Of a DNA stretch of 64,000 bases, positions 2,389 through 39,132 are shown piece by piece. Numbering within the stretch: the stretch's first letter is position 1; every line of letters starts with the position of its first letter. The DNA comes from a phage. The translations under genes and the position numbers were made by a program. Below the pieces are notes generated by a model that worked only from the letters and a program-made list of their open reading frames with translations, was not told the DNA's origin and searched no databases. The stretch is taken from the NCBI GenBank assembly GCA_030980935.1, contig GCA_030980935.1_3059.1; one strand, given 5' to 3'.

Positions 2389-3504
2389 ATGGAAAAATTT
2401 ATGGCAGAGTTTGGACAAGGATATGTCCAAACGCCATTTTTATCGGAAAGCAATTCAGTAAGATATAAAATAAGCATAGCGGGTTCTTGCCCGCTTTCTA
2501 CAGCAGGACCATACGTTAAATTTCAGGATAATCCTGTAGGAAGTCAAACATTTAGCGCAGGCCTTCATTTAAGAGTTTTTGACCCTTCCACCGGAGCGTT
2601 AGTTGATAGTAAATCATATGCTTTTTCGACTTCAAATGATACTACATCAGCTGCTTTTGCTAGCTTCATGAATTCTTTGACAAATAACAGAATTGTTGCT
2701 ATATTAACTAACGGAAAGGTTAATTTTCCTCCTGAAGTAGTATCTTGGTTAAGAACAGCAGGAACGTCTGCTTTTCCATCTGACTCTGTATTGTCAAGAT
2801 TCGACGTATCATATGCTGCTTTTTATACTTCTTCTAAAAGAGCTATTGCATTAGAGCATGTTAAACTGAGTAATAGAAAAAGCACAGATGATTATCAAAC
2901 TATTTTAGATGTTGTATTTGACAGTTTAGAAGACGTCGGAGCTACCGGGTTTCCAAGAAGAACGTATGAAAGCGTTGAGCAATTTATGTCAGCGGTTGGT
3001 GGAACTAATAACGAAATTGCAAGATTACCAACTTCAGCTGCTATAAGTAAACTCTCTGATTATAATTTAATTCCTGGTGACGTTCTTTATCTTAAAGCCC
3101 AGTTATATGCCGATGCTGATTTACTTGCGCTTGGAACTACAAATATATCTATCCGTTTTTATAATGCATCTAATGGATATATTTCCTCGACACAAGCTGA
3201 GTTTACTGGACAGGCTGGGTCTTGGGAATTAAAGGAAGACTATGTAGTTGTTCCAGAAAATGCAGTTGGATTTACGATATATGCACAGAGAACTGCTCAA
3301 GCGGGACAAGGCGGTATGCGAAATTTAAGCTTTTCTGAAGTATCAAGAAATGGCGGCATTTCAAAACCTGCTGAATTTGGCGTCAATGGTATTCGTGTTA
3401 ATTATATCTGTGAATCTGCTTCACCTCCGGATATAATGGTACTTCCTACGCAAGCATCGTCTAAAACTGGTAAAGTGTTTGGGCAAGAATTTAGAGAAGT
3501 ATAA
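2389..3504 (+). CDS. 35: Long tail fibre hinge connector gp35
   Basis: 371 aa (T4 gp35 about 372 aa); position between 34 and 36. Confidence 0.85.
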   Translation: MEKFMAEFGQGYVQTPFLSESNSVRYKISIAGSCPLSTAGPYVKFQDNPVGSQTFSAGLHLRVFDPSTGALVDSKSYAFSTSNDTTSAAFASFMNSLTNNRIVAILTNGKVNFPPEVVSWLRTAGTSAFPSDSVLSRFDVSYAAFYTSSKRAIALEHVKLSNRKSTDDYQTILDVVFDSLEDVGATGFPRRTYESVEQFMSAVGGTNNEIARLPTSAAISKLSDYNLIPGDVLYLKAQLYADADLLALGTTNISIRFYNASNGYISSTQAEFTGQAGSWELKEDYVVVPENAVGFTIYAQRTAQAGQGGMRNLSFSEVSRNGGISKPAEFGVNGIRVNYICESASPPDIMVLPTQASSKTGKVFGQEFREV

Positions 3505-17070: not shown

Positions 17071-19248
17071 TTAGGCCGCAAGGGCCTTCATAGTTTTAGC
17101 GATTTGAGAAACTTCATCATCACTTAAAGAGTTGCGATAACCGATGAAGTCGGAAACAATACGGAATTTCTTGGTAAACTCAGCAACCATTTTATCACTA
17201 TTTTTTGAAGCATTATTTGACAATACATCAAAAAGATTAGTTACTGTCCAGATGTCATGACCGATGGTACCTTTTCCACCGTTGAAATATATGCCCTGTA
17301 ATGAACTAACCATATTACCAAGGCGAGTATATTCTTCAGAAACTTCATCTACACTGAAGTACTTCATCATAAAATCTAGTTCAGGATACTTAATAATTTT
17401 ATCAATATATCGTTTAGCTGAACTTGAATAACCTACATACTTATCATAATCTACAGCATCAAAAGCATCTACATATAAATCACGCAGAGTTTCAAAAATA
17501 CATTGGCACTGACCGAGTTCTTTTACCTTTTTCTGTAAAAGCGGACGAATAACATAAAATTCATTAATGCCAATAAGATTAGCCATACGAATCAAAATAT
17601 TCATAGATGGATGACAAAGTGATGTAGTACCATCCATAGAGAAAATATCAGAACGATGCATATACGCTACATAACCAGTAATTTCATCTGCTTCTGACGT
17701 AAGTGTAAATAATTCCTCTTTTTCCCAACGCCCATCTTTAATTTCAAACTTAAATGCTGTAGCAGCTTTAGGACGAGGAGCTTTACTTTTAACTACCTTT
17801 GGAATATAGCTTTTAACTAAAGCTTCAATTTCTGACAAATAATGAATGTTAACTTCATCACTTTCAAACATTGCCATAATATCAGGAAGCAAATCAATCT
17901 GCGATTCTACTTCTGGATTAATAAACAGAAGGCGTTCGTTGTGATGAATATTCAAAGTGTTATTAAATTCACTATCATCTAACGCATGTGCTAATCCACG
18001 GACAATATTAACACGATTTTTAATATTATCAATAACGATATTAATTTTTGTTGTATTAATACCAAACAGACGATAACTTGATGCAACGGCTGAAGTTTCA
18101 TGGCTTTGCTTAATGCGTTTCAGTCGAGGGTCAAGATTTACTTCATACACAACTCCTGCATTGCATAACTTACTGTCAGGTTCAAACATGCTCTGCATTT
18201 TCTTATATGACAGATTTTTAGTCGTGAATTTGACTGAATTACTAATCATATAATCTCGAGCAGAATACCCCATCTTCATCAATTCACGATATGTGTGACG
18301 AGGAGATGTAGATTCTTTAAATCGTTTTACATCTTCATTAAATGCTTTCTCACTAAGCTCTTTAACTCGTTCAATAATATTTTTACGAGTGCGATCATCT
18401 AATGAAAGAGCTTCACGTGATGGAGCAATATCAAGTGAACCCATTGGAAATTTAATGTAATTCACTTCATTGCGAATGCTTAGCCAGTTACGGTCTCTAA
18501 TAACACCATCGATAGGATAAACAATACCGCCATAGATAGCATATAATCCACCACGATCTGGCCAATATCTTTCTGGATTTACGCCATAATAATCATCAAA
18601 ATCCGGAAAATAATCAATTTCGCGGTCAAGACCATTAATGATAGCCAAATCTTTGAATGGTCGCATGATATAAGAAACTTCATAAGCAAAGTTTCTAAAG
18701 TCTTTTTCTTCAACTGGAACTACGATTTCAATACCAGTTTTATCATTTGGACCCATTTCTTTTACGAATGTAGGTTTAATTTGTGGACCATCGCCATCCA
18801 TGTAAGCTACATAACCACGAATTTCACCTTTATGATACGAAGTAATACTAAACGTATCAGTATAACTAAACGGAGATTTAGAACCTAAACCAAATCCGCC
18901 AATAAAGTCATTAGATTCAGCCTTAGATGAACTGAAGTATGAATTATACAAACCAGGAGAATTATCATCACCCTGAATATCAAAATCACTCATACCCGGA
19001 CCAAAATCTCGGCAAACAAATCGTGGATCTAAACGTCCAGGAACTTGAATGATAAATTTTTCAGGATTTCCATTGAGAGCATGGGCATCAATCATGTTGG
19101 TAATCAATTCACGAACAACTGCGCGAATCTTATTTGTATACAAATCAGATGACAGAATTTTAAATACTTTAGGATTTGCTGCGATGCTAAATGCTTTTGA
19201 TTTAGAACCATTGCCAAGAATTGTTTCTTTTTCAGTGGTGATAATCAT
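17071..19248 (-). CDS. rIIA: rIIA protein
   Basis: 725 aa as T4 rIIA; GHKL-ATPase-like N-terminus. Confidence 0.9.
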
Positions 19249-33076: not shown

Positions 33077-34416
<1,340 letters not shown>

Positions 34417-34506: not shown

Positions 34507-34707
34507 ATGGTACAAAAATTAATGGCACTTGTTAATGCCATAAAAGGTAATAAAAAACGTATAGCTTTTACTATTTCTGCTATGGTAGGAATTTTACTCT
34601 GGAACTTTATTCTATCACCTATTGCAATTGCACATGGTATTAATATTCCAGTGGTTACTCTTGATACATTTGTAGATTTAGCATTTGCTTTAGTTGGGTT
34701 GATTTAA
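34507..34707 (+). CDS. Small hydrophobic peptide (66 aa), plus strand
   Basis: Strong SD AAAGGAGG 4 nt before ATG; Ala/Gly/Val/Ile/Leu-rich, 1-2 predicted TM segments; only plus-strand ORF candidate in the minus-strand block. Confidence 0.4.
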   Translation: MVQKLMALVNAIKGNKKRIAFTISAMVGILLWNFILSPIAIAHGINIPVVTLDTFVDLAFALVGLI

Positions 34708-35732
34708 ATCTTGGCATATTTAGATAGCCGCATTTTAGCCATCAACCCCTGTGCAATATTATTTTTCATATATTCCATAATTTGTTCAGGGGTTGCACCT
34801 TCCTTTCTAATCATATCATTAACATCTTTTGATTTCCAGGGAGATTTATCCCAAAACATAACCCTTTCTCCTGCATCAACTAATTTAGTCATTCGCTTAA
34901 TAGTGTCAGGATGACGAGGTTCATTATCTAAAACCCACACACGTCTATCTTTAAATGGAACAACTTCTAGGTCTAATTGACCACCCGTAATAGCTATACC
35001 ATTTTCAATAAAAAGTGAATCTATAGGTCCTTCTAGAACATATACATCACCATCTTTAACTCGTTCGACTCCATAGATTTTTGTTGCTTCAGGATAAGCT
35101 TTGATGGTGATATATTTTTGGGGAGCATCTTTCTTTAATGCACGTCCTTGAAAAGACTCAGCTTTTCCATTAGCATTATAAATTGGAATAACAAGACGAG
35201 GCTCAGGTATTTCCTTTTTATATGTTCCTGGTGCTATGCTATTAACTAATTTAGGCCATTCGGTTGTAAACCAAAGATATTTCCATTTATCCTTTGGAAT
35301 ACAGCGAGCTTTTACATATTTTATAATTGGATGGTCTTCCGCCAATTTATCTAATCTAATGCATGACGGAAGAGATTTAATTATTTTCTTCTCAGGTTGT
35401 TTAGGAAGTTCTTTAGGTTTTTCTACTGGACGACTTTTACCTTTTTCTTTTCTTATTTCAAAGATATACTCACGATATAAATCGGGTTCAAACTCCTTTA
35501 AATATATTCCGATTGGTGCATGATAGTTACAGTTATAACAATGAATATTTCCTTCATTATTATCACCATAATACCATCCACGAGCTTTATTCTGGTCGGT
35601 TTTTGAATCTCCACAAACTGGACATCTAAACCGCAATTTAAAAGTTGAACTATTATTTACTTGTGTGAATTTAGGTAGATGAGCTAATGCACGGTATGCA
35701 AACTCATTATCAATCCAAGGTATTGATGACAT
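34704..35732 (-). CDS. 61: DNA primase gp61
   Basis: 342 aa as T4 gp61; N-terminal zinc ribbon CPVCGDS...CYNCNYH. Confidence 0.9.
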   Translation of the reverse strand: MSSIPWIDNEFAYRALAHLPKFTQVNNSSTFKLRFRCPVCGDSKTDQNKARGWYYGDNNEGNIHCYNCNYHAPIGIYLKEFEPDLYREYIFEIRKEKGKSRPVEKPKELPKQPEKKIIKSLPSCIRLDKLAEDHPIIKYVKARCIPKDKWKYLWFTTEWPKLVNSIAPGTYKKEIPEPRLVIPIYNANGKAESFQGRALKKDAPQKYITIKAYPEATKIYGVERVKDGDVYVLEGPIDSLFIENGIAITGGQLDLEVVPFKDRRVWVLDNEPRHPDTIKRMTKLVDAGERVMFWDKSPWKSKDVNDMIRKEGATPEQIMEYMKNNIAQGLMAKMRLSKYAKI

Positions 35733-35734
35733 TT

Positions 35735-35899
35735 TTACTCTTCTTTTTCTTTAGATTCCTCTTTCTTCTTTTTAGGAATCTGTTCAGGACCTTTATTTAC
35801 TACAGCACCTGACGTTGTTCCAGTAGAGATATTTTCAGGATTACCACCTGAATCTCCAGCGACCATATCTTCTTTAATAAATTCTTTATATGTTTTCAT
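35735..35899 (-). CDS. Small hypothetical protein (54 aa, 61.1-like)
   Basis: MKTYKEFIKEDMVAGDSGG...KKKKEESKEKEE; below cutoff; start lies inside a 47-bp direct repeat. Confidence 0.45.
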   Translation of the reverse strand: MKTYKEFIKEDMVAGDSGGNPENISTGTTSGAVVNKGPEQIPKKKKEESKEKEE

Positions 35900-35943
35900 A
35901 TTAACCTCTATTCATAAAAGCATTAAAAATTTGGTCATCAATA
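35897..35943. repeat. 47-bp direct repeat, copy A
   Basis: catattaacctctattcataaaagcattaaaaatttggtcatcaatag; 3 mismatches to copy B. Confidence 0.8.
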
Positions 35944-36257
35944 GATGGCGCAGTAATATTTTCTGCATCATTTAGCAAATCATTAATTTCATCAGATAGC
36001 ATAACACATGTACCTTTATTTCCTGTAATTGTTACTGCACAATTACGAACGTTTTCTTTATCAAATTTTAGGTTAATATTTTCGTAGTGAAAATCCTTTA
36101 ATGCCGAATATATCTTTAAAATGAAATTGTCTTTTACTACAATAAACCCAACCTCACTATTAAAACGCGGTTCATGGAAACTGTAATAAACCTTTTCATC
36201 TATAAAATCGTATGAAATTTTTTCCATTTTTAAATATGAAAATTCAGAACTATACAT
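35901..36257 (-). CDS. Hypothetical protein, truncated paralogue of the next gene
   Basis: 118 aa; shares VKDN core and C-terminus SIDDQIFNAFMNRG with downstream 196-aa ORF; flanked by 47-bp direct repeats. Confidence 0.55.
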   Translation of the reverse strand: MYSSEFSYLKMEKISYDFIDEKVYYSFHEPRFNSEVGFIVVKDNFILKIYSALKDFHYENINLKFDKENVRNCAVTITGNKGTCVMLSDEINDLLNDAENITAPSIDDQIFNAFMNRG

Positions 36258-36301
36258 ATTAACCTTTATTCATAAAAGCATTAAAAATTTGATCGTCAAT
36301 A
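36255..36301. repeat. 47-bp direct repeat, copy B
   Basis: catattaacctttattcataaaagcattaaaaatttgatcgtcaatag; 358 bp from copy A. Confidence 0.8.
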
Positions 36302-36849
36302 GAAACTTTTACAATTTTGTGATCGATACCAAAATACACAGAAGCAATATTATTAATATTATTTTCAGTGAAATCTAAATCAACATCAATATCTTTTTGA
36401 CTAACGCTCAAAGGATAATTAATACGAATAATTCGATTATCTTTAACAAAGATTCCACCGACATACTCTGTGCTGCGTTTAAAGTTTACACGTTTCCTAA
36501 ATGAAAAATATTCAGGTTCTTTATGGGCTCGACTCATAGGGCTTAAAGTATATTCCGAATATGAAATATCAAATCCTACACCTTCAATATGAGCCAAAGT
36601 GTCATGATTAAACCAATTATAATCGTATGCCAAATCCATTAAATTGTAATATGTGAAAGGCACCGGATTAACATCATATGTTGTACCTTTAAAATCTGCC
36701 CAGGCAACGATTTCGTTATCTTTAACAATTACAAAAATTGTGCCAATAAGATATCCACGGTTATTTTCATCAGGCGTTATATTATAACATTGTGCATCAG
36801 GAAATTTACCGTATTTAAACGGTGGATTTTTGTGCATATAATAAATCAT
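36259..36849 (-). CDS. Hypothetical protein (61.2-like) with internal repeat
   Basis: 196 aa; motif I(F/V)V(I)VKDN occurs twice; C-terminus SIDDQIFNAFMNKG. Confidence 0.55.
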   Translation of the reverse strand: MIYYMHKNPPFKYGKFPDAQCYNITPDENNRGYLIGTIFVIVKDNEIVAWADFKGTTYDVNPVPFTYYNLMDLAYDYNWFNHDTLAHIEGVGFDISYSEYTLSPMSRAHKEPEYFSFRKRVNFKRSTEYVGGIFVKDNRIIRINYPLSVSQKDIDVDLDFTENNINNIASVYFGIDHKIVKVSIDDQIFNAFMNKG

Positions 36850-36850
36850 A

Positions 36851-37144
36851 TTATTCGCCTGTGATTTCGGTTACGATATTTTTGTTATTAAAGTTTTTAT
36901 CGCAGTACAGAACATAATTATACTGCATTACACCACCAGACTTAAGTTGTTTTTGCACTTCAGCTTTCATTTCAGGACGATCGCGCTCAACGATATTCAT
37001 AATATCCGCTTCAATTTGAGTTTCAACTTCAGTCTGATCTGCAGTCATAGACCATTCACACAAATCTTTATCATATCCTGCCATAGCAGGCTGAGCAGCA
37101 CAAGAAGCCAAAGTAAAAATTGTAGCAAAAATAAATTTTTTCAT
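36851..37144 (-). CDS. Secreted small protein (61.3-like)
   Basis: 97 aa; signal peptide MKKFIFATIFTLASCAAQPAMA. Confidence 0.55.
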   Translation of the reverse strand: MKKFIFATIFTLASCAAQPAMAGYDKDLCEWSMTADQTEVETQIEADIMNIVERDRPEMKAEVQKQLKSGGVMQYNYVLYCDKNFNNKNIVTEITGE

Positions 37145-37204: not shown

Positions 37205-37462
37205 CTATTTTAAAACTTCTGCGTAATCACATGTTACAAACTGTTTCTCTAGCTTAACGATTTTACGAAAATACCTTTTATACTGACGAATCTGCCTCTT
37301 CGTAGGACGTACAGCAAACTTAATAAATTCCACTCGACCAAATGGAGGACTTTCTTCTGCTGGAATATCTAACACCAATTCCCACGTATCTGCAATAAGT
37401 GCTTTGAATTGAGTATTTTTCCTGACGTTATACGGAGTAGGTTTAAATAAAACAATATGCAT
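37205..37462 (-). CDS. Hypothetical protein at gene 61.4 position (possibly TifA-like)
   Basis: Track ORF trimmed to MHIVLFKPTPY (85 aa) with SD GAGGA; directly downstream of dmd. Confidence 0.5.
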   Translation of the reverse strand: MHIVLFKPTPYNVRKNTQFKALIADTWELVLDIPAEESPPFGRVEFIKFAVRPTKRQIRQYKRYFRKIVKLEKQFVTCDYAEVLK

Positions 37463-37463
37463 A

Positions 37464-37646
37464 TTATCCTCGGCAATCCACTTCGCACACTTTCTTGTCA
37501 TCAATGAAAGCTTCAACTAATGCTTTATTAACTTCAGCATATTGAGTAGTAGCCCATTGAACGTCATCTTTCATCATTGTGATTTCTTTAGTAAACATGC
37601 TTTCATTCTTAAACCACCCCATAAAAACTACCTTTACCAATTCCAT
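37464..37646 (-). CDS. dmd: Dmd antitoxin (inhibitor of RnlA/LsoA)
   Basis: 60 aa; sequence recognised as T4 Dmd (MELVKVVFMGWFKNESMFTKEI...). Confidence 0.9.
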   Translation of the reverse strand: MELVKVVFMGWFKNESMFTKEITMMKDDVQWATTQYAEVNKALVEAFIDDKKVCEVDCRG

Positions 37647-37704: not shown

Positions 37705-39132
37705 CTAAAATTTTAATTCATTTGCCAAAGCATCTAACTGTGCTCGAGTGGATTCATTTCTTTGATAGCGATTCTGTTCAGCCTGAATCTGTTGTGAACC
37801 TGCTACTTCACTCACTTCAGTTGGAGTAGAATCTTGTTCAATTTCTACCCATTTCTGATTTCCCTTTTGAACACCCATCAAAAACTTATTCCACTTATTC
37901 TTATCGCCATATCGTGATTTGATTTGCTTAATGAGTTGTTGTTCAGCAGCTGCTAGCTCCTCGGTTTCAATGACCGCAAGCATAAAATCAGCTGTTGCTG
38001 GAAGACCAGCAGATTCTGCGATATCACTCATGTTAACATCGGAAGAGTCCCAAGCTTGTTTACCAACCTGTGCTGCAGTCCAAAGAACAGTTTCGGTTTC
38101 AACAGCAAGAGCACGCAATTCCTCTGCAATAGCTTTAACAGTTGTGTAACTATTTTCTGAGTAAACTCTGATGCGGCAAGATTTACAAATACCTAGATAG
38201 TCGACAATAATGATTGTTGGAACAAAATTCTTTTTGAGCTTCAATTCATTCAAGAGAGACCTGAATGTGTTAGCATCTGCCCCACCAGTAGGGTACTGTT
38301 TAACAATTAAACGACCGAGAGTAGATTTCTCACGCCATTTTTCCATTTTTCCTTTATACTCAGCGTAAGAAATATGCCCATCATCAATGTCATCAAGAGA
38401 AACATCGAGCATATTAGCGTCAATACGTTTAGCACAGACTTCTTCTGCCATTTCCATGGAGATATAAAGAACGTTATGTCCAAGCTGTAAATAATCTGCT
38501 GCTAATGAACACAATCCTAATGATTTACCAACGTTAACGCCAGCCATTAAAACGTTCAGTGTTCCAGTTTCAGCTCCGCCTTTAGTAATTTTGTTTAGAA
38601 TTCTGAGTTTAAATGGAACCTTACGAGCTTTATTCATATAAGATAGCCAACGTGCTTCGTAGTCATCCATCCAATCATGACCAACGTAACTATCAAATGA
38701 AATTGATAATGCTTGGCGCATGATGTCAGGAATAGCACCAACATCCGGCATTTTCTTATTTCGTTTTTCCGGAGGAAGCTCAGCATTAGTTTGAATTTCG
38801 ATTATTTTAGACGTAGCATTAAACATCGCCCTTTGCTGAACATATTTTTCTGTTTCTTTTATTAACCAACTGTGGTCTTCCGGAGAATCAGCTAGTTTTG
38901 AAATAAGTGTTTTTACACCAGAATATTCTGTTTCCGTAAATGAACTATTTTCTAATGCAACATTTAACGCATTAATAGATGGAACGCTATGATACTCATT
39001 GACATGAGATTTAATTAATTTGAATGTATTTTTAGCTGGACCACTTTCAAAATATTCTGAATCCATATATGGCCAAACTTTTGAAAAATAAGCTTGATCA
39101 AATATGAGATGAGAAAGAATAATTTCTACCAC
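37705..39132 (-). CDS. 41: Replicative DNA helicase gp41 (DnaB-like)
   Basis: 475 aa as T4 gp41; Walker A GVNVGKS. Confidence 0.9.
   Translation of the reverse strand: MVEIILSHLIFDQAYFSKVWPYMDSEYFESGPAKNTFKLIKSHVNEYHSVPSINALNVALENSSFTETEYSGVKTLISKLADSPEDHSWLIKETEKYVQQRAMFNATSKIIEIQTNAELPPEKRNKKMPDVGAIPDIMRQALSISFDSYVGHDWMDDYEARWLSYMNKARKVPFKLRILNKITKGGAETGTLNVLMAGVNVGKSLGLCSLAADYLQLGHNVLYISMEMAEEVCAKRIDANMLDVSLDDIDDGHISYAEYKGKMEKWREKSTLGRLIVKQYPTGGADANTFRSLLNELKLKKNFVPTIIIVDYLGICKSCRIRVYSENSYTTVKAIAEELRALAVETETVLWTAAQVGKQAWDSSDVNMSDIAESAGLPATADFMLAVIETEELAAAEQQLIKQIKSRYGDKNKWNKFLMGVQKGNQKWVEIEQDSTPTEVSEVAGSQQIQAEQNRYQRNESTRAQLDALANELKF

Follow-up and report, generated by a model that had tools for sequence, protein, structure and literature searches.

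The sequence analyzed here (the window) is a 64,000 nucleotide (nt) stretch of contig GCA_030980935.1_3059.1, from assembly GCA_030980935.1, and represents a Tequatrovirus (T4-like) genome. This report concerns positions 35,735–36,849, an interval between the primase gene (gene 61) and the spackle gene (sp) that contains gene 61.1, a 118 amino acid (aa) open reading frame (ORF) and a 196 aa ORF, along with a pair of near-identical direct repeats at the 3' ends of the latter two (Table 1). All genes in the region from sp to 61 lie on the minus strand, and the interval from gene 61 to gene 41 is 98.9% identical with that of phage teqdroes. An initial annotation, made from the sequence alone, counted six ORFs between genes 61 and 41 as compared to five in T4, and this is correct: T4 carries 61.1, 61.2, sp, 61.4 and dmd but lacks the 118 aa ORF, which we refer to as p118. 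Three genes of this region are known to counter host toxins, dmd acting against RnlA, tifA against ToxN and adfA against DarT, and the region has been called an anti-TA island, the other genes of which are candidate inhibitors (PMC9391042). The interval is the variable slot of this T-even 'anti-toxin island', and in the window it is occupied by two genes of the AdfA family, full-length adfA and p118.

Table 1. Features of the variable slot and its surroundings (positions are those of the window).
Feature	Position	Strand	Description	Basis
gene 61	34704-35732	minus	primase	
gene 61.1	35735-35899	minus	54 aa; marks where the conserved 61.1-61 block begins, right of the variable slot	
downstream repeat copy	35897-35945	minus	p118 tail SIDDQIFNAFMNRG, stop, T, 61.1 ATG; identical to the end of T4 61.2	
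middle promoter P61, downstream copy	35898-35922	minus	start site ~35891	homology to T4
p118 (RB32ORF033c family)	35901-36257	minus	118 aa; single-domain, short AdfA paralog	
upstream repeat copy	36255-36303	minus	AdfA tail SIDDQIFNAFMNKG, stop, T, p118 ATG	
second P61-type motif, upstream copy	36256-36280	minus	TGCTTTT, 12 nt, TAATAT	pattern match
adfA (T4 gene 61.2 homolog)	36259-36849	minus	anti-DarT factor A, 196 aa	
adfA deletion junction	36308-36313	minus	42 nt, in frame; flanked by the 4 nt microhomology GTAA	alignment to teqdroes and others
sp (spackle)	36851-37144	minus	left border of the variable slot	Pfam T4_Spackle, E 6e-45
61.4 (tifA)	37205-37462	minus	neighboring anti-toxin gene	Pfam DUF7279
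dmd	37464-37646	minus	neighboring anti-toxin gene	Pfam Dmd
gene 41	37705-39132	minus		

The 196 aa protein matches the Pfam family AdfA (PF23813) over its full length (E 1.3e-121, 404 bits) and belongs to phrog_3781; the NCBI name for this family is 'DUF7184 family protein'. Its T4 counterpart, gp61.2, is AdfA, the anti-DarT factor A (PMC11257639, PMC9391042), which binds the ADP-ribosyltransferase toxin DarT1 (PMC11257639, PMC11825919, PMC9391042). The p118 protein is assigned to phrog_4122 (E 2e-72) and scores 31.9 bits against the same Pfam family (gathering cut-off 27 bits), covering profile positions 113-211 only, and precomputed Pfam annotation likewise assigns p118 clusters to PF23813. 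BLASTP aligns p118 to residues 111-196 of AdfA with 35% identity (E 1e-9), and so bears out the resemblance to the C-terminal half of AdfA noticed in the initial annotation, as well as the double occurrence of the motif VKDN in the 196 aa protein (second BLASTP segment, E 0.11). What the two proteins have in common is a core module of a β-sheet plus helix, which includes the helix carrying the specificity position R164/H164 of RB69 AdfA, an identical C-terminal tail, and a place in the slot after sp. They differ in that p118 is without the N-terminal domain (118 aa versus 196–219 aa) and has a linker of its own, and the two-module architecture (~200–219 aa) is seen in AdfA but not in p118, which consists of a single module of 118 aa. 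The paralogy of AdfA and p118 is not new, and a GenBank record for RB32 from 2006 already labels RB32ORF033c 'similar to gp61.2'; the p118 protein itself is uncharacterized.

The direct repeats are real and slightly longer than the 47 bp originally reported, being 49 nt in length with 46/49 identical positions and a start-to-start distance of 358 nt. When the window was searched for this 49-mer with up to three mismatches allowed, exactly two sites were found, compared to 0.00 expected from 100 shuffles. Read on the minus strand, the two copies have the sequence TCT ATT GA(T/C) GA(C/T) CAA ATT TTT AAT GCT TTT ATG AAT A(G/A)A GGT TAA T ATG, and each specifies SIDDQIFNAFMN(R/K)G followed by the stop codon, a single base and the ATG of the next gene, which is how the repeats had been read at the outset. 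They do delimit the 118 aa ORF, but the bracketing is not symmetrical, as one copy is the 3' end of adfA while the other is the 3' end of p118 itself. Nucleotide identity between the two units stops at the Ser codon of the tail.

The same few codons also carry a promoter. The T4 middle promoter P61 has a published start site at position 19122 (Hinton 2010, Table 1; PMC2988021), which in the T4 record is found 8 nt downstream of the first base of the 61.1 start codon. Its -10 element, TAATAT, is made up of the stop codon of gp61.2, the T that follows it and the AT of the ATG, and the spacer is 12 nt. MotA boxes have the consensus (a/t)(a/t)(a/t)TGCTTtA, with 12 ± 1 bp between the box and the -10 element (PMC2988021); the features looked for here were a MotA box of the form (a/t)(a/t)(a/t)TGCTT(t/c)A and, at a distance of 12 ± 1 bp, a sigma-70 -10 sequence (TAnnnT). 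In both window copies the MotA box TAATGCTTTT lies on the tail codons for F-N-A-F, matches 9/10 consensus positions, and is followed by a 12 nt spacer and a TAATAT -10 element. The downstream copy thus has all of the parts of the MotA/AsiA-dependent P61 of T4 and is base-for-base identical to it. The difference from T4 is that there are two copies, 358 bp apart, of which the upstream one deviates from the mapped type by one spacer base (G to A); transcription from it would begin inside p118. The sequence suggests that this upstream copy may also be active, and the annotation of phage Lutter places 27 nt promoters at both equivalent sites. The pattern TGCTTYW-N(11-13)-TANNNT, present in both copies, occurs 23 times in the window, mostly on the minus strand, as compared to 5.2 times expected from shuffles, and many candidate middle promoters can be read straight from the window sequence through these matches. 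In T4-like phages, P61 drives transcription toward the primase gene. The element sits entirely inside coding sequence and is at once a promoter and the code for a conserved peptide, and the repeats are accordingly two copies of a multi-purpose element that combines the peptide tail with a middle promoter, a Shine-Dalgarno sequence and a start codon.

The tail is a feature of the whole family. Its near-invariant 14 residues, S(I/V)DDQIFNAFM(N/K)(R/K)G, are followed by the stop codon, a Shine-Dalgarno sequence and the next ATG, and at the loci read they end every slot gene directly after sp in four genera of three subfamilies, namely Tequatrovirus, Mosigvirus, Gaprivervirus and the Dhakavirus-like phages (JS10, Bp7, WG01 and dhabil). 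Signals resembling (G/A)(A/G)GGTTAATATG follow the tail across all four. The tail is common to the AdfA and p118 families and to a third family of ~146 aa (p146), and both of the window genes, adfA and p118, carry it at the position after sp. Differences in the tail codons between genera are mostly synonymous third-position changes (GAT/GAC, CAA/CAG, GCT/GCC/GCA and TTT/TTC, along with AGA/CGA), and the peptide is therefore under strong selection; for the same reason, a function at the nucleotide level alone was rejected as an explanation of the tail. The TGCTT core of the MotA box is not conserved outside of Tequatrovirus.

The near-identity of the two window copies has to be judged against this constraint. 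Codons are identical at 10/12 comparable positions, whereas 6.4 would be expected from the peptide and phage codon usage (P = 0.027). Tails within one genome differ at 1–5 of 42 nt and orthologous tails between genera at 6–11 of 42 nt, a pattern that would fit some concerted evolution or a lineage-specific nucleotide constraint, although few sites are involved. With the codon test reaching only P = 0.027, the identity of the repeats is, together with these tail distances, suggestive of gene conversion and not a proof of it. Most of the nucleotide identity appears to be a by-product of constraint and gives no evidence of recency, and the repeats would be conserved by layered selection rather than because they are young.

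The distribution of the slot genes was assessed by searches of phage records. At a level of at least 80% identity, p118 was detected in about 295 records, while AdfA was found in 487. Searches specific for the junctions returned ~157 records in which AdfA is followed by p118 and 141 in which sp is followed directly by p118 (T2 type). A further search recovered 327 records spanning the AdfA 3' end to 61.1, and subtracting the former 157 leaves about 170 in which AdfA is followed by 61.1 (T4 type). These counts are approximate and include RefSeq/GenBank duplicates, the subtraction being needed because BLAST joins pieces across the 358 bp unit. The three states (AdfA only, AdfA plus p118, and p118 only) are of similar frequency, roughly a third each.

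Two of these states can be compared in T4 and phage APTC-EC-2A, whose sequences are 97% identical in the 1751 nt running from sp into gene 61. The sole indel between them is exactly 358 nt and is placed at a perfect 46 nt repeat. The corresponding indel between T4 and ESh36 is 357 nt because the p118 gene of ESh36 (ON528746, 935-1291) is frameshifted, and the 1 nt change, near the end of p118, destroys its tail. The sequence of the tail beside 61.1 does not depend on the gene that it ends. At the loci read, AdfA mostly ends in NKG where p118 follows and in NRG where 61.1 follows; a strict rule that AdfA ends in NKG whenever p118 follows is not universal, as APTC-EC-2A and ESh36 have NRG in both copies. 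The T2-type junction reads sp, TTAGAGGTTAGT, p118. It is no simple tail-tail product and could not be derived from a simple event at the tail or at a TAATATG microhomology, so other events must also have occurred.

The AdfA gene of the window has a history of its own. There are two allele classes of AdfA, T4-like and Mosigvirus-like, both of which occur with and without p118, and the window protein is Mosigvirus-like (77% identical to the RB69 type, 67% to T4). The 3' end of sp together with adfA (36259-36900) forms a Mosigvirus-like (RB69-like) allele in a backbone that is otherwise 98–99% T4-like. The boundaries of this mosaic lie within sp on the left and at the tail on the right, and which AdfA allele is present goes along with the sequence at the 3' end of sp. 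Position 164 of RB69 AdfA decides whether DarT1 is neutralized, R164 being inactive and H164 active (PMC11257639). In the corresponding specificity motif, NIN[R/H]IAS, the window protein has Asn at residue 167 (36349-36351), while T4 has His and RB69 has Arg. Asn is also found in the AdfA proteins of teqdroes, PhiZZ6 and one further locus (L007), and represents a third state. The equivalent position of p118, on the helix of the retained AdfA module, is Asn as well, so that neither window protein has the His of DarT1-neutralizing alleles; this His is a feature of DarT1-active alleles and not of family membership. Relative to all close relatives, the window adfA has also lost 14 aa of the linker before the tail (ICGYELPFEEQPKV) through the 42 nt deletion listed in Table 1. 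The deletion was present in 0/487 AdfA-bearing phage records (best identity 93.3%), and the exact 196 aa protein was found once among ~15 billion proteins, as EKZ2119349.1 on a 166,089 bp contig of an E. coli assembly. In phage Elenatom (PP925844, 1868-2490), AdfA is frameshifted and lies upstream of a divergent (76%) p118; this gene and the p118 of ESh36 are natural knock-outs among the relatives.

Given the anatomy and homologies observed for the two units, the way they are distributed, an indel of exactly one unit and a repeat that coincides with the start site published for P61, we consider it probable that this is a variable anti-toxin slot in which the genes end in a combined tail, promoter and start element, and that recombination at the repeats adds or drops p118. 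Because each gene ends in the same 46–49 nt, the whole 358 bp gene could be removed or added in frame by homologous recombination, either inside a single genome or between phages infecting the same cell, and the tail, promoter and start site would always be regenerated intact. This would make in-frame gain and loss possible and account for the presence or absence of p118 across the population. The structure of the indel between T4 and APTC-EC-2A is as would be expected from homologous recombination between the repeats, and together with the three slot states it supports the cassette proposed in the initial annotation, in that the 358 bp unit behaves as one that is gained and lost at these sites. 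We infer that recombination at the repeat was the actual mechanism. T4 has been shown experimentally to amplify and delete sequence in the same island through homologies of 6–10 bp (PMC9391042).

The most serious alternative is that the repeats are a mere by-product of the constraint on peptide, promoter and start codon and have no part in rearrangements, the pattern having arisen as co-infecting phages exchanged larger blocks in the ordinary way, or through microhomology events at other sites. Four observations lean this way and weigh against a role for the repeats: the nucleotide identity was only modestly above expectation in the codon test, the left boundary of the allele replacement is inside sp and not at a repeat, the T2-type junction does not have the structure that joining two tails would give, and T4 recombines at microhomologies of 6–10 bp in any case (PMC9391042). 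Such exchanges would not, however, lead one to expect that T4 and APTC-EC-2A differ by exactly one unit with breakpoints inside the repeat and a collinear, 97% identical background, nor that the tail copy beside 61.1 would be the same whichever gene it ends. The tendency toward NKG before p118 and NRG before 61.1 is likewise what crossovers within the tail would give, with APTC-EC-2A and ESh36 as exceptions. We therefore regard this alternative as unlikely, and favor recombination at the repeats as the source of the slot variation.

Orthologs of p118 are found at the same position in Gaprivervirus (VR25 and locus L009), with 46–49% identity, where they are preceded by p146 in place of AdfA. 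The three families align over a common core plus the tail, and a comparison of p146 with p118 by hhalign gave a probability of 98% (E 2e-13). Between the window p118 and that of VR25, synonymous sites are saturated (synonymous divergence, dS, about 3.5). The ratio of nonsynonymous to synonymous divergence (dN/dS) was 0.04–0.37 in all pairs tested, indicating a selected gene and no remnant, and the length of the protein is 116–125 aa across genera. An exhaustive profile search of 1.84 billion representatives returned 7–8 clusters of the family plus spurious matches to BACON repeats, and the source-named cluster members, like the loci read, were all T-even-like phages or assemblies with contigs of such phages. 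Taken together, the comparisons show p118 to be an old, single-domain paralog of AdfA under purifying selection.

The AlphaFold model of p118 has a predicted local distance difference test (pLDDT) score of 83.9 and a predicted template modeling (pTM) score of 0.73. It consists, in order, of five antiparallel strands, a helix, a short strand, a second helix, a linker of low confidence and a C-terminal tail helix (pLDDT about 50). The model of AdfA (pLDDT 70) has two β5-α modules and the same floppy tail helix. The similar order of secondary-structure elements in the models is no more than suggestive of an internal duplication, and a comparison of the AdfA halves by hhalign (6.5% probability) gives it weak sequence support. 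No informative structural relatives were found, and sequence searches of the PDB gave nothing.

It could also be argued that p118 is a decaying, functionless remnant of adfA that is kept for the promoter and translation signals of 61.1 and 61, given that it matches only half of AdfA, that the ESh36 copy is frameshifted and that T4 does without the gene. This we consider very unlikely in light of the dN/dS values in every pair tested, the length kept across genera, the confident and compact predicted fold, and the roughly 141 T2-type records in which p118 is alone in the slot. The initial annotation also proposed a recent duplication. Such an event, a tandem copying of the 3' half of adfA in this lineage that left the repeats as fresh junctions, would suit the near-identical repeats and the homology of p118 to the C-terminal half of AdfA, but it is scarcely credible for what proves to be an ancient and diverged pair, with only ~35% protein identity outside the tail, orthologs at the same position in another genus with saturated dS, some 295 records carrying p118 at 80% identity or above, a third family (p146) with the same tail, and a repeat identity mostly explained by an invariant peptide and codon bias.

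Two known systems resemble the arrangement described here. PeSLs are likewise short regulatory sequences, repeated at the flanks of non-essential genes in hyperplastic regions, and provide homology for the insertion, deletion or replacement of whole genes, but they are intergenic and consist of early promoters of the sigma-70 type plus a terminator hairpin (PMC2839356). The present element is instead a middle promoter within the last 14 codons of a protein family, has no hairpin and occurs at one locus only. Between 35600 and 37250, there were 0 terminator-like hairpins, and matches to sigma-70-like promoters were not above shuffles (13 versus 9.3 ± 2.7). The second system is the amplification and deletion of dmd-tifA in T4 (Srikant et al. 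2022, PMC9391042), where recombination between short direct repeats in the same anti-TA island changes the copy number of anti-toxin genes. Those events arose in the laboratory at chance microhomologies of 6–10 bp (PMC9391042), whereas the repeat seen here is 46–49 bp, functionally conserved and associated with a natural polymorphism. The 42 nt deletion in the window adfA, with its GTAA flanks, is of the microhomology type, as in the dmd-tifA events.

As regards function, the best guess, if somewhat short of an even chance, is that p118 acts as a second inhibitor of toxins and has a specificity of its own; its target could be a DarT-like or another toxin, and the tail may be a shared functional peptide. 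A more specific and tentative version, which we would not favor at present, is that the invariant 14 residues are a shared anti-toxin peptide (e.g., a tethered helix that docks on the toxin or on a common partner), the DNA of which is at the same time a MotA-dependent promoter and a portable recombination joint of 46–49 bp, and that p118 by itself inhibits a toxin, whether DarT-like or of another kind. If this were true, the slot after sp would be a plug-and-play site at which T-even phages swap or stack inhibitors in frame, and the ~140 'adfA-less' phage records of the T2 type would not be free of the AdfA family. T2, which carries p118 alone in the slot, was described in a recently published survey as 'naturally lacking an adfA homolog'.

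Other differences were seen in genes close to the slot. In Gaprivervirus and the Dhakavirus-like phages, two more genes stand between the slot and 61.1, an extra 61.4/TifA-like gene (73 aa) and one of 63 aa (VR25, 2859-3246), and the content of the island therefore differs by genus. Between dam and gene 61, the window has a 186 aa ORF (33856-34416, minus strand; phrog_8706) that T4 does not carry. Its only Pfam matches are weak, below threshold and to nuclease families (DpnII, E 0.0099; BanI; HSDR_N), while a sequence search of the PDB gave no match. Its position, adjoining the gene for a GATC methyltransferase, is suggestive. A 66 aa ORF on the plus strand (34507-34707) converges on the 3' end of gene 61; its counterpart in T2 is annotated 'similar to RB69ORF029w' and that in KRT47 as a predicted membrane protein.

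The finding is thus of a known gene (adfA), a second, uncharacterized protein of its Pfam family and two copies of a promoter already known, and it refines current understanding at the level of annotation rather than overturning it. AdfA is among the few characterized phage inhibitors of DarT toxins, and recognizing p118 as a member of its family affects how the phenotypes of T2, T6-like and BASEL phages toward DarTG and other toxins are read. The 14-residue tail is the most conserved, and hence the most testable, part of the family. The slot also shows, in a case from nature, how a single short sequence can act at once as peptide, promoter, translation start and recombination joint, and because these are combined, anti-defense genes could be stacked up or lost while the essential primase gene downstream is expressed as before.

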